NCBI RefSeq assembly: GCF_988243305.1
Contig: NZ_OZ547136.1
Strand: one strand, 5' to 3'
DNA: 64,000 nucleotides
The notes below the pieces were generated by a model, which had not been told where the DNA came from, made no database searches, and saw nothing but the letters and a program-made list of their open reading frames with translations. Position 1 is the first letter of the stretch, and every line of letters starts with the position of its first letter. The position numbers were made by a program, and so were the translations under genes. This document shows, piece by piece, positions 16,674 to 26,010 of the stretch.

Positions 16674-17110
16674 TTCGGGAAGCGCAACGTTCAGAACTCC
16701 CCGCGATCCTCGAACTGTGGCTGGAAAGTACAACCTGGGGGCATCCCTTTATAAAAGCGAATTACTGGCGTGATTGCATTCCGCTGGTGCGGGATGCCTA
16801 TCTTGCCAACGCGCAAAACTGGGTCTGGGAAGAAGACGGTAAGCTTCTCGGTTTTGTCAGCATTATGGAAGGCCGATTTCTGGCTGCAATGTTTGTCGCA
16901 CCGAAGGCCGTCAGACGCGGTATTGGTAAGGCGCTAATGCAGTATGTGCAGCAGCGCCATCCCCATCTGATGCTGGAGGTTTATCAAAAAAATCAACCGG
17001 CGATAGATTTTTACCATGCGCAAGGTTTTCACATTGTCGACTGCGCATGGCAGGATGAAACCCAACTACCCACCTGGATTATGAGCTGGCCGGTGGTTCA
17101 AACGCTGTAA
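16670..17110 (+). CDS. yiaC: GNAT-family N-acetyltransferase YiaC
   Basis: 146-aa ORF with acetyl-CoA binding motif [10 protein letters not shown]; 4-bp overlap with tag. Confidence 0.85.
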
Positions 17111-22495: not shown

Positions 22496-22786
22496 ATGGA
22501 ATATAAAGATCCAATGCATGAGCTGTTGAGCAGCCTGGAACAGATTGTTTTTAAAGATGAAACGCAGAAAATTACCCTGACGCACAGAACAACATCCTGT
22601 ACCGAAATTGAGCAGTTACGAAAAGGGACAGGATTAAAAATCGATGATTTCGCCCGGGTTTTGGGCGTATCAGTCGCCATGGTAAAGGAATGGGAATCCA
22701 GACGCGTGAAGCCTTCAAGTGCCGAACTAAAATTGATGCGTTTGATTCAAGCCAACCCGGCATTAAGTAAGCAGTTGATGGAATAG
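22496..22786 (+). CDS. yiaG: XRE-family HTH transcriptional regulator YiaG
   Basis: 96-aa ORF with C-terminal HTH (LRKGTGLKIDDFARVLGVSVAMVKEWE). Confidence 0.8.
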   Translation: MEYKDPMHELLSSLEQIVFKDETQKITLTHRTTSCTEIEQLRKGTGLKIDDFARVLGVSVAMVKEWESRRVKPSSAELKLMRLIQANPALSKQLME

Positions 22787-22899: not shown

Positions 22900-22907
22900 G
22901 CACATCA

Positions 22908-23066
22908 ACGGTTTGACGTACAGACCATTAAAGCAGTGTAGTAAGGCAAGTCCCTTCAAGAGTTATCGTTGATACCCCTCGTAGTGCACATTCCTTTAAC
23001 GCTTCAAAATCTGTAAAGCACGCCATATCGCCGAAAGGCACACTTAATTATTAAAGGTAATACACT
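22908..23066 (+). promoter_or_regulatory. cspA 159-nt 5' UTR (cold-box / RNA thermosensor leader)
   Basis: Leader beginning ACGGTTTGACGTACAGACC... runs to the ATG at 23067; established cspA biology. Confidence 0.8.
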
Positions 23067-23279
23067 ATGTCCGGTAAAATGACTGGTATCGTAAAATGGT
23101 TCAACGCTGACAAAGGCTTCGGCTTCATCACTCCTGACGATGGCTCTAAAGACGTGTTCGTACACTTCTCTGCTATCCAGAACGATGGTTACAAATCTCT
23201 GGACGAAGGTCAGAAAGTGTCCTTCACCATCGAAAGCGGCGCTAAAGGCCCGGCAGCTGGTAACGTAACCAGCCTGTAA
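23067..23279 (+). CDS. cspA: Major cold-shock protein CspA (70 aa)
   Basis: [70 protein letters not shown]. Confidence 0.98.
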
Positions 23280-23306
23280 TCTCTGCTTAAAAGCACAGAA
23301 TCTAAG

Positions 23307-23337
23307 ATCCCTGCCATTTGGCGGGGATTTTTTTATT
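23307..23337 (+). terminator. cspA rho-independent terminator
   Basis: Hairpin tccctgcc-attt-ggcgggga followed by tttttttatttg. Confidence 0.8.
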
Positions 23338-23466
23338 TGTTTTTCAGGAAATAAATAATCGATCGCGTAATAAAATCTATTATTATTTTTGTGAAAAATA
23401 AATTTGGGTGCAATGAGAATGCGCAACGCCGTAAGAAAGGCGGGAATAACTTCCCGCCGAAGACTC

Positions 23467-23619
23467 TTACTCTTTCAAATTGCAGGCTAAAAATGCCGCC
23501 AGCTCATAACTCCCCTGTTTAATATGCAATTCACACAGTGAATCTCTTATCATCCAGGTGAAAAATAAAAGCGTGCAACAAATCACTATTAAAGAAAGTA
23601 ATCTATATTTCTGCGGCAT
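23467..23619 (-). CDS. hokA: Hok-family type I toxin HokA (50 aa)
   Basis: MPQKYRLLSLIVICCTLLFFTWMIRDSLCELHIKQGSYELAAFLACNLKE; an in-frame 20-codon upstream extension exists in the ORF track. Confidence 0.85.
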   Translation of the reverse strand: MPQKYRLLSLIVICCTLLFFTWMIRDSLCELHIKQGSYELAAFLACNLKE

Positions 23620-23896
23620 TCCCAGCCTCCTGTGTTGATTTCCAACGAGTAAGAGGCTAACCTTATGGTGTTCAGGCATAGGGTAGCCTCACTTTGATTT
23701 ATAGTCAGGTGGGGCTTTTCTCTGTCTGCCTTTCGGTGAATACCTGAGACAAACAGTCTCAAGCACCCGCAGCTATTCTAGCTTAATAAGTTCGTTTCTT
23801 CTCCTTGATATAATCCTAAAAAAATCTCATAAAATTAATATATGAGACAATCTTTATTCAGCAGAAGATTATTAAAGGTTGCTCTATTATTTAGCG

Positions 23897-23922
23897 ATAA
23901 AAAAGCCTGCCAGATGGCAGGC
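23897..23922 (-). terminator. glyS rho-independent terminator
   Basis: Hairpin agcctgcc-agat-ggcaggct with flanking A/T runs just after the glyS stop. Confidence 0.8.
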
Positions 23923-23940
23923 TTTTTAATAACGGCGTTA

Positions 23941-26010
23941 TTACTGCAACAGCGAAATATCCGCAACGCGCAGGAACAGTTCGCGCAGTTTCTCCAGCAT
24001 GGTCAAACGGTTAATACGCAATTCTTTGTCATCAACCATGACCATCACTTTATCGAAGAAGGCATCAACCGGTTCACGCAATTCAGCCAGTTCGACCAGC
24101 GCGTCCTGGTAACGACCTTCGGCGAAGTACGGCTCCAGTTTATCGCGCAGCACAACCACCTGCATCGCCAGTTTAATTTCTTCCGGCTCTTTCAGAGTAG
24201 AAGCATTCACGCGATCGCTCAGCACTTCGTCAGACTTCGCCAGAATGTTAGATACACGCTTGTTCGCCGCCGCCAGTGCTGCAGCTGCTTCCAGGGTACG
24301 GAAGTGCGATACCGCTTTCATTCGGGCATCGAAATCAGCCGGACGCGTCGGACGACGTGCCAGTACCGCCTGGATGGTGTCAACGGTGTAACCTTCGTCC
24401 TGATACCAGGCGCGGAAGCGACCGAGCATAAAGTCGATAACATCATCAACCACGTTGGCATTAGTCAGCTTATCGCCATACAGACGCACTGCTTCTTCGG
24501 TCAGCGTTTGCAGATCAAGGTTGAGGTTCTTCTCAACGATAATGCGCAGCACGCCAAGTGCGGCACGACGCAGCGCAAACGGGTCTTTATCGCCTTTCGG
24601 ATGCTGACCGATACCGAAAATACCCGCCAGGGTGTCCATCTTGTCAGCAATCGCCAGCGCACAAGCCACTGGGTTAGACGGCAGGTCATCACCGGCAAAA
24701 CGCGGCTGATACTGCTCGTTCAGCGCCACTGCCACATCTTCCGCTTCGCCATCGTGACGCGCGTAGTGCATCCCCATAACGCCCTGGGTGTCGGTGAACT
24801 CGAAGACCATGTTGGTCATCAGGTCACACTTAGACAGCAGGCCCGCACGGGTTGCGTGGTTAACGTCAGCGCCAATCTGTTCAGCAATCCAGCCAGCCAG
24901 CGCCTGGATGCGGTCAGTTTTGTCGCGCAGTGTACCCAGCTGTTGCTGAAACAACACGGTTTGCAGGCGCGGCAGGTTATCTTCCAGACGTTTTTTACGG
25001 TCGGTGTTGAAGAAGAACTCGGCATCCGCCAGACGTGGACGAACGACTTTCTCGTTACCAGAGATAATTTGCTGCGGATCTTTCGATTCGATGTTGGCAA
25101 CGAAGATAAAGTTCGGCAGCAGTTTGCCGTCGTTCGCATACACCGGGAAGTATTTCTGGTCACCTTTCATGGTGTAAACCAGCGCTTCAGACGGCACCGC
25201 GAGGAATTTCTCTTCGAATTTTGCGGTCAGCACAACCGGCCATTCCACCAGCGAAGCCACTTCTTCCAACAGGCTTTCGCTTAAGTCAGCGTTACCGCCA
25301 ATCTTACGTGCTGCTTCTTCGGCATCGGCTTTAATCTTCGCCTTACGTTCTTCGTAATCGGCGATGACTTTCCCGCGCTCACGCAGAATTTCCGGATACT
25401 GATCGGCGTTATCGATGGTGAATTCCGGCTCGCCCATAAAGCGGTGGCCGCGAATCACGCGATCGGACTGAATGCCCAGAATGGTAGCCGGAATAACTTT
25501 GTCGCCCAGCAGCAGGGTCACGGTGTGCACCGGACGCACGAAGTGCACGTCGCTTGCACCCCAGCGCATCAGTTTCGGGATCGGCAGTTTCGCCAGCGAA
25601 GTTGCAACCATATTCGGCAGCAGTGCTTCGGTGCTTTCGCCCTTCACGTGGGCGCGATACAGCAGCCATTCGCCTTTATCGGTAGTCAGACGCTCAGCCT
25701 GGTCAACGGTAATACCGCAACCACGCGCCCAACCTTCTGCCGCTTTGCTCGGTTTGCCTTCAGCGTCGAACGCCTGGGCAATCGCCGGGCCGCGTTTTTC
25801 GATTTCACGATCCGGTTGCGCTTCCGCCAGGTTAGCTACTTTCAGCGCCAGACGACGCGGAGCAGCAAACCATTGAACGGTGCCGTGTGCGAGGCCAGCG
25901 TTATCCAGCTCCACAGTAAAGTTCGCAGCAAAGGACTCAGCCAGGCTGCGCAGTGCTTTTGGTGGCAGCTCTTCAGTGCCGATTTCCACCAGAAAAGTTT
26001 TCTCAGACAT
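23941..26010 (-). CDS. glyS: Glycine--tRNA ligase beta subunit (689 aa)
   Basis: 689-aa [23 protein letters not shown]..., immediately downstream of glyQ. Confidence 0.97.

Follow-up and report, generated by a model that had tools for sequence, protein, structure and literature searches.

The region of the window (the whole 64-kb stretch of DNA that was analysed) that is flanked by cspA, which converges on it, and by the end of glyS is very probably the chromosomal hokA-mokA-sokA locus, a type I toxin-antitoxin system of E. coli, in its ancestral, IS-free state. The same high confidence attaches to the identity and the architecture of the hokA/sokA locus. The reading frames, their homology, the alternative RNA pairings with their covariation, the absence of an insertion sequence (IS) and the comparison with K-12 were all established directly. 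An uninterrupted hokA/sokA, the disruption of the K-12 copy by IS150 and the hok/sok mechanism are already known and belong to textbook type I toxin-antitoxin biology; the IS-free form in E. coli has been known since 1999, and RefSeq already annotates hokA of this kind in thousands of genomes.

Organization of the hokA locus

The gene order of the E. coli chromosome in the window is yiaF-yiaG-cspA-hokA-glyS. On the left, cspA and its thermoregulator RNA (22907-23334, plus strand, 501 bits) run convergently towards hokA; on the right, the glyS stop codon (23941) is followed by a terminator palindrome that marks the boundary of the locus (Table 1). A leader region in front of this terminator had been proposed in the first-pass annotation with a length of about 260 bp; the region is present, and the distance from the hokA ATG to the terminator was measured as about 280 bp. 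Apart from mokA, the ORF list holds no ORF of at least 60 aa between hokA and glyS, and one ORF of 57 aa on the hokA strand overlaps the leader.

The complete 50-aa Hok ORF noticed at first pass was confirmed. Its product matches the Pfam family HOK_GEF (PF01848) with 78.1 bits (E = 3.8e-22) against a gathering score of 22 bits, which places it in the Hok/Gef family. It is identical to RefSeq HokA WP_001135727.1, which is annotated in colinear genomes and, among the compared loci, in the records behind two (L002 and L005), and it differs from K-12 HokA at three residues (F15C, E36G, K47N). HokA is a 50-aa membrane peptide, toxic in the case of K-12 HokA if over-expressed, and its Cys46 is encoded in the DNA and is not made by RNA editing (bioRxiv 10.1101/2025.08.07.668861; PMC12214031).

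The in-frame extension upstream of hokA, which had been described as possibly mok-like, turned out to be what RefSeq annotates as mokA in K-12. The 70-aa frame here is the counterpart of the truncated mokA pseudogene of K-12 and ends in common with hokA, and the ATG codons of mokA and hokA are 60 nt apart. As in hok/sok systems, the mok frame thus begins upstream of hok and overlaps it.

The hok/sok leader model of Rfam (RF01794) matches the minus strand at 23617-23768 over its full length (model positions 1-157) with 124 bits (E = 3.7e-29; gathering score 59). The match covers 152 nt including the hokA AUG, the leader upstream of hokA being 149 nt. Since the match lies on the hok-sense strand and stops at the hokA AUG, the model describes the leader of the hok mRNA and not the antisense RNA itself. 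The other Rfam matches between 22000 and 25000 (leader peptides, istR, rnk and others; E = 0.05-0.8) coincide in every case with the terminator hairpins and were rejected as chance matches.

Table 1. Features of the hokA locus in window coordinates, with the R1-type plasmid counterpart where one was aligned, and the annotated K-12 features in NC_000913.3 coordinates. The putative R1-type promoter boxes and mRNA 5' end were read from the aligned plasmid sequence, anchored on the published transcript ends.
Feature	Position	Strand	Sequence or length	R1-type counterpart	Remarks
Predicted full-length hokA mRNA	23405..23768	-	about 364 nt		both ends putative
fbi	23406..23418	-	UCUCAUUGCACCC		mRNA 3' end; full-length fold
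GC-rich hairpin, hokA 3' UTR	23439..23458	-			terminator-like site; folds; conserved with compensatory changes (helix 18)
hokA CDS	23467..23619	-	50 aa + stop, MPQKYRLLSLIVICCTLLFFTWMIRDSLCELHIKQGSYELAAFLACNLKE		ORF list, Pfam
mokA ORF	23467..23679	-	70 aa		in frame with hokA; ATG at 23679
hokA Shine-Dalgarno (SD)	23626..23631	-	AGGAGG		read from sequence
sokA promoter	23635..23663	+			
sokA -35	23635-23640	+	TTGATT	TTGCGC	
sokA spacer		+	17 bp	17 bp	
sokA -10	23658-23663	+	TAACCT	TATCCT	
Segment missing in K-12	23652..23690		39 bp		BLAST and junction sequences
dcb side of Sok-target hairpin	23653..23662	-	GGUUAGCCUC		isolated-leader fold
dcb motif			AGCCUCUUAC, present	present	
Predicted sokA RNA	23669..23724	+	about 55 nt		putative ends; homologous to R1 Sok
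mokA SD	23687..23690	-	GAGG		read from sequence; 7 nt before ATG 23679
mok SD and start			present	present	
Unoccupied IS150 target	23690..23694	.	CACTT		duplicated in the second natural hokA::IS150 allele (L003)
ucb	23709..23717	-	AAGCCCCAC		pairs with mokA SD (full-length) or tac (trimmed)
tac	23757..23768	-	GGGUGCUUGAGA		mRNA 5' end; pairs with fbi (full-length) or ucb (3'-trimmed)
mRNA 5' end			GGGUGCUUGAG	GGCGCUUGAGG	
hokA promoter -10	23775..23780	-	TAGAAT	TATGAT	6 nt upstream of putative start
glyS terminator palindrome	23900..23927	-			locus boundary; fold -20.6 kcal/mol, z = -4.6
K-12 hokA	3720448-3720600				NC_000913.3 annotation
K-12 mokA pseudogene					shares hokA end; NC_000913.3 annotation
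K-12 IS150 (insJ, insK)	3720633-3722075				NC_000913.3 annotation
K-12 sokA pseudogene			35 nt		between IS150 and glyS; NC_000913.3 annotation

Predicted transcripts and alternative folds

The 5' end of the hokA mRNA was placed at G23768 on the basis of homology to R1 hok and of the RF01794 match, which starts there, and the 3' end was placed just after fbi. The putative -10 box has no good -35 box in front of it. It is kept as TAGAAT, TAGAGT or TATACT in nearly all HokA-like loci. The putative sokA promoter occupies positions homologous to those of the putative R1-type plasmid sok promoter, which was itself placed with the published 5' end of Sok; only three of the six positions of its -10 box match the consensus. 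A strict scan for the sigma-70 consensus across 23280-23960 missed both promoters, hok as well as sok; its single hit, inside the glyS terminator, was no better than expected from shuffled sequence. Therefore, the assignment of the two promoters rests on homology and conservation.

The RNA folding that had been suggested as a check for tac/fbi was carried out. In the full-length RNA (23768 to about 23405; minimum free energy -138.9 kcal/mol, z = -8.65 against shuffles) the first 12 nt pair with fbi at the 3' end, so that tac/fbi closes the predicted fold, and the ucb bases GCCCCAC cover the mokA SD. When about 30 nt are removed from the 3' end, tac is predicted to pair with the ucb bases AAGCCCC, and in the isolated leader the mokA SD forms a hairpin with dcb. 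The predicted folds thus contain the 5'-3' closure by tac/fbi and the alternative pairings ucb/mok SD, tac/ucb and mok SD/dcb that characterize hok/sok, with the mokA SD pairing alternately with ucb and dcb. A YUNR-type CUGA lies in the loop (CCUGAACAC) of the Sok-target hairpin. By analogy to R1, the GC-rich hairpin of the 3' UTR would be the stop point for 3' trimming.

The predicted SokA RNA starts with about 10 unpaired nt as a 5' tail, continues into a hairpin and a U-rich end (UUUUCUCUG), and folds with -19.7 kcal/mol (z = -3.1). Its putative 3' end coincides with the end of the sokA pseudogene remnant in K-12.

Conservation in HokA-like loci

A scan of one genome per species yielded 38 HokA-like loci, from Escherichia, Pseudocitrobacter, Kluyvera, Citrobacter, Phytobacter, Enterobacter, Lelliottia, Huaxiibacter, Edaphovirga, Rahnella and Rouxiella. 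Complete mRNA regions of 34 loci, from about 12 genera, were aligned for covariation analysis. The outer tac/fbi helix (helix 1) is paired in 98.0% and the inner helix (helix 2) in 97.6%, and tac cells are paired in 98-99% in both folds; because the window sequence was the source of the structure, these percentages are inflated relative to the slid controls. Compensatory changes occur in four of the five pairs of helix 2, for example at columns 12/422 (GC 19, AU 13). The covariation score was reached by none of 500 column shuffles, and the true register scores about twice as high as any slid register.

The alternative pairings change together. The ucb/mok SD columns 77/107 are CG in 22 loci and UA in 11, and the mok SD/dcb columns 107/144 are GC in 21 and AU in 11, while at the tac/ucb columns 5/77 (GC 22, GU 11) pairing is kept through G-U. 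The change of ucb column 77 from C to U is accordingly coupled with G to A at mok SD column 107 and C to U at dcb column 144 (22:11, 22:11 and 21:11, respectively). Such three-way coupling is the signature expected if the same bases serve two alternative structures. In the putative sok promoter, all 34 loci have the -35 TTG and the -10 bases T1, A2 and T6 in common.

The toxin ORF is intact in 32 of the 34 loci, and with the window as reference its dN/dS against other genera is 0.1-0.35 wherever dS is unsaturated. An in-frame 70-aa mokA is found in eight of the 11 aligned loci of the Escherichia/Pseudocitrobacter/Kluyvera/Citrobacter/Phytobacter clade, the exceptions being a frameshift (L010), a stop codon (L016) and a Phytobacter locus with no ATG-started ORF (L018); outside this clade mokA has no ATG or lies in another frame. 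hokA adjoins glyS in Escherichia, Pseudocitrobacter, Kluyvera, Citrobacter sedlakii and Phytobacter, and no IS150 was found in the HokA-like loci of other genera. The adjacency in five genera indicates that the locus is old and vertically inherited, and that the empty IS150 site is ancestral.

The K-12 allele and the frequency of IS150 insertions

As the first-pass annotation had it, no IS lies between hokA and glyS: a blastn search with IS150 found no match in the entire 64-kb window, the hokA-glyS gap included. It had also placed an inactivating IS150 at this locus in K-12, and the alignment with K-12 bore this out. In K-12 MG1655 (RefSeq NC_000913.3; b4455, b4647, b4614 and insJ-insK) the same locus, with common flanks 97-98% identical to the window, carries an IS150 of 1,443 bp between hokA and glyS. 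The BLAST matches of the K-12 flanks extend up to 23651 on the left and resume at 23691 on the right, which revealed a further loss of 39 bp that had gone unmentioned. The missing segment holds the -10 box and 5' end of sokA as well as the SD and start codon of mokA, and the junction sequences of the K-12 IS150 show no target-site duplication. The K-12 lesion is therefore larger than a simple insertion. Because of the IS150 and the 39-bp loss, mokA and sokA are pseudogenes in K-12 and the hokA promoter and tac lie 1.4 kb from the ORF. Our search of the literature on hokA or hokB with IS150 found nothing directly on the K-12 allele. Two reports that follow Pedersen & Gerdes 1999 describe hokA, hokC and hokE of K-12 as inactivated by insertion elements (PMC12214031, PMC7232551).

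The locus is present in 5,425 of 5,426 complete E. coli genomes and is uninterrupted, that is, colinear over at least 80% of 23280-23960, in 2,830 of the 5,425 (52%). Junction-specific queries assigned the K-12-type allele to 1,659 genomes by the left junction and to 1,643 by the right. A second hokA::IS150 allele, found in 1,129 genomes by its right junction, carries IS150 in the opposite orientation as a simple insertion, with duplication of the 5-bp target. Since the counts for the three classes add up to about 5,610, so that about 3% of genomes (about 185) were counted twice, the proportions are approximate: about half intact, about 30% of the K-12 type and about 20% of the second type. 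The window is colinear with the uninterrupted genomes and belongs to neither of the disrupted alleles. K-12, which also lacks the 39 bp, is the exception and not the rule at hokA. The earlier interpretation was right about K-12 and about the intactness of the locus; the function that it allowed for is about as likely as not, and an uninterrupted locus is not unusual.

Comparison with E. coli C and plasmid R1

An IS-free hokA/sokA is reported to have been characterized from E. coli C (PMC3562002, bioRxiv 10.1101/2025.08.07.668861; after Pedersen & Gerdes 1999, Mol Microbiol 32:1090), and hokA of AIEC NRG857c is intact as well (PMC7232551). The E. coli C locus is likewise uninterrupted and has the same position (cspA-hokA-glyS), length and order of elements as that of the window, to which it is 97.7% identical over 681 bp, with 16 differences. 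Among these, the hokA SD is AGGAGG in the window and AGGGGG in E. coli C (position 23628), and residue 15 of HokA is Cys in the window and Phe in E. coli C. Between fbi and the 3' hairpin there are a 1-nt indel and a substitution (23423/23424), and the stretch from the -10 box to the start site has two differing bases (23770/23771).

The hok/sok (parB) system of plasmid R1 has the same architecture: mok, tac/fbi and ucb/dcb are common to both, as are a hok promoter that is weak and a 3' UTR with a GC hairpin, and the putative promoter of antisense Sok lies here, as in R1, inside the mok-hok region. The Hok peptides are about 38% identical. Alignment with the R1-type plasmid gave an element-by-element correspondence (Table 1). 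The two systems differ in that the present locus is chromosomal whereas R1 hok/sok is plasmid-borne, and that the 3' UTR of hokA is shorter than that of R1. In addition, the mok and hok ATG codons of the published R1 sequence are 58 nt apart, which would put R1 mok out of frame with hok, unlike mokA here.

Proposed mechanism and activity

In R1, the mRNA is inert at full length; its slow trimming from the 3' end switches on mok-coupled translation of hok, a step that Sok blocks by binding at the mok start (PMC9841398). The mechanism proposed for the present locus follows this system, and we infer for it the transcript ends, the promoter activity, the 3' processing and any activity of the module in the source strain. 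A weak promoter with the -10 box TAGAAT would produce a hokA mRNA of about 364 nt, in which tac is paired with fbi and ucb lies over the mokA ribosome-binding site, so that the full-length RNA would be neither translated nor bound by Sok. Slow trimming from the 3' end to the GC hairpin would remove fbi; tac could then pair anew with ucb, and the mokA SD would enter the dcb hairpin. The trimmed form would allow translation of mokA and, coupled to it, of hokA. SokA, a putative RNA of about 55 nt expressed from the opposite strand (-35 TTGATT, -10 TAACCT), would pair with the mokA start region and block translation.

We rate physiological activity of the module, of whatever kind, as roughly an even chance. 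The first-pass suggestion of a possibly functional locus stands insofar as every regulatory element is present, the sokA promoter and hairpin as candidates. Against it, post-segregational killing (PSK), which has been shown for R1, is reported to be absent for the IS-free hokA of E. coli C, the closest allele to have been tested, as is activation by rifampicin, in a report citing Pedersen & Gerdes 1999 (bioRxiv 10.1101/2025.08.07.668861). Judging from the sequences, this negative result may not transfer to the window allele, because the two differ at 16 positions, including one in the hokA SD; it is still the best available evidence and argues for caution.

The strongest rival, with a probability only a little below even, is that the locus is structurally intact and physiologically silent, a relic that is at most weakly transcribed and processed and never kills, like other chromosomal hok loci judged inactive. 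Low mutation pressure would then account for its conservation, or else selection acting on sokA and ysaE, which overlap it, or on the terminators nearby. Besides the E. coli C result, the weak match of both promoters to the consensus is consistent with such a relic, as are the decayed copies in relatives, the IS150-disrupted alleles carried by roughly half of E. coli with no evident cost, and the recurrence of IS150 knock-outs of hok loci in experimental evolution (PMC5419217). Loss of the locus is evidently tolerated, since IS150 has disrupted it in about half of the E. coli genomes and frameshifts or stops occur in some relatives. However, the low dN/dS of the toxin ORF across genera, the compensatory and three-way coupled changes that keep both alternative RNA folds, and the adjacency to glyS kept in several genera all speak against silence, and so does the hokA SD, in which the window allele departs from the allele tested in E. 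coli C. Keeping every regulatory element together with a canonical hokA SD, the window allele would be a reasonable choice for asking if any chromosomal hok locus can be active at all.

It is improbable that the main product is the 70-aa in-frame ORF and the toxin an N-terminally extended Hok. Translation from the mokA ATG would indeed yield an extended HokA, since mokA is in frame, and mokA has its own SD. However, the 50-aa ORF is the unit that every clade conserves, and a strong SD (AGGAGG) of its own precedes it; relatives in Enterobacter, Rahnella and Edaphovirga either lack the mok start or have it in another frame; and the 50-aa HokA of K-12 is toxic upon over-expression by itself (bioRxiv 10.1101/2025.08.07.668861).

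Clustered IS150 insertions in hok loci

Precise excision of a former IS150 as the origin of the empty site, conceivable in that IS150 repeatedly targets exactly this position, was rejected as very improbable, because the window has a single CACTT without duplication or footprint and its surroundings (AAAGTGAGGC...) are colinear with the Pseudocitrobacter, Kluyvera and Citrobacter orthologues, all without IS150 sequence.

For the ancestral empty site, we tentatively suggest, at rather less than an even chance, that IS150 is near site-specific for one spot in the hok/sok leader (23690-23694 in the window), the GCCUC-N3-4 found at the mok SD, a segment that also forms the 5' arm of the Sok hairpin. 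On this view hok modules would be 'disarmed' in nature again and again, with the empty site as the target, and an intact allele with a canonical hokA SD might still be active, unlike the allele of E. coli C.

Repeated hits of IS150 on hok loci are already documented. In an evolution experiment with E. coli B, IS150 inserted at position 16,972 in hokC/nhaA in three lineages, and further IS150 insertions occurred near hokE and mokB (PMC5419217). Position 16,972 of REL606 aligns to window position 23691, to which the right junction of the K-12 allele also maps. In an IncF plasmid with a hok/sok identical to that of R1, IS150 lies at GCCTCGTGG^TGG with a 3-bp duplication, a position homologous to GCCTCACTT^TG in hokA. 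A limited literature search found no statement that these hits share one nucleotide-level target, and we claim no novelty for it. The independent IS150 insertions of the two hokA alleles, the plasmid hok and hokC cluster at one homologous site, within about 3 nt, and this clustering across hok loci merits a target-site study.

IS150 target site and the K-12 allele

The IS150 insertions in hok/sok leaders are gathered at one homologous site (window 23690-23694), GCCTC-N3-4, at the mok SD and the 5' arm of the Sok hairpin. Two natural hokA::IS150 alleles and an R1-type plasmid hok carry the element (see table). In addition, IS150 has been found in hokC in three experimental lineages (PMC5419217), and our alignment places that hokC insertion point, REL606 16,972, at window 23691.

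The K-12 hokA::IS150 allele is more than a simple insertion. Relative to the window, 39 bp (23652-23690) are absent at its junctions (L001:1633/3077, L001 being the K-12 locus), and no target-site duplication was found at these junctions. The loss of the 39 bp together with the lack of a duplication suggests that the allele arose either by an IS-adjacent deletion or by recombination between two IS150 copies. In the counts over complete E. coli genomes, the hokA allele classes total approximately 5,610 versus 5,425 genomes, meaning that approximately 185 genomes were counted twice; IS150 copies with internal deletions, or a locus present in duplicate, could account for this.

hokA-like loci of relatives

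In the alignment of HokA-like loci, the mok position of Enterobacter, Lelliottia and Huaxiibacter (L020-L042) is occupied by ACA or ACT without an ATG (columns ~118-121). The covariation of mok SD, ucb and dcb is retained in the Enterobacter clade despite the missing mok ATG; mok translation may use another start there, or may be dispensable. According to the same alignment, Cys46 of HokA is DNA-encoded (TGC/TGT; window 23482-23484) in the syntenic glyS-linked group, namely Escherichia, Pseudocitrobacter, Kluyvera, Citrobacter sedlakii and Phytobacter. Codon 46 of the Enterobacter, Rahnella and Edaphovirga relatives is TAC followed by G, a sequence context that fits the A-to-I editing reported for Hok homologues (PMC12214031). 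The hokA copies of several relatives are decayed (see table).

Coordinates of features within and outside the window
Feature	Location	Strand	Remark
Second natural hokA::IS150 allele	L003:3416-4858		IS150
R1-type plasmid hok::IS150	L006:2247-3689		target-site duplication TGG
Escherichia sp. E1V33 hokA	L010:1027-1393		+1 A frameshift
Kluyvera genomosp. 3 hokA	L016:1051-1415		stop at codon 19
Kluyvera sichuanensis hokA	L019:947-1372		repeat element breaks ORF after ~codon 8
E. albertii hokA	L008:1-20		contig ends 15 nt upstream of ATG
cspA-hokA insert	L005:654-1025; also L007		~400 bp
23-aa ORF MRNAVRKAGITSRRRLLLFQIAG	window 23419-23490	+	antisense to hokA stop and 3' UTR
STnc370 match	window 23867-23933	+	overlaps glyS terminator palindrome, opposite strand
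yiaG	window 22496-22786	+	96 aa, HTH_3

Sequences flanking hokA

In some strains, the GTDB E. coli representative among them, extra sequence separates the hokA 3' end from the cspA terminator. This insert contains an ORF annotated 'yidD' and may lie close to fbi and change the 3' end of the hokA mRNA. The 23-aa ORF is the counterpart of ysaE (b4793), annotated in K-12; other RefSeq genomes list its product as a 'hypothetical protein'.

On the glyS side, the Rfam match to STnc370, an enterobacterial sRNA, is sub-threshold (46.3 bits, E=9e-5; gathering score 54); it could represent a genuine small RNA sharing the bidirectional terminator, or just the terminator itself. The Pfam match of yiaG to the MqsA antitoxin domain is weak and also stays below its threshold (26 bits, cut-off 30).
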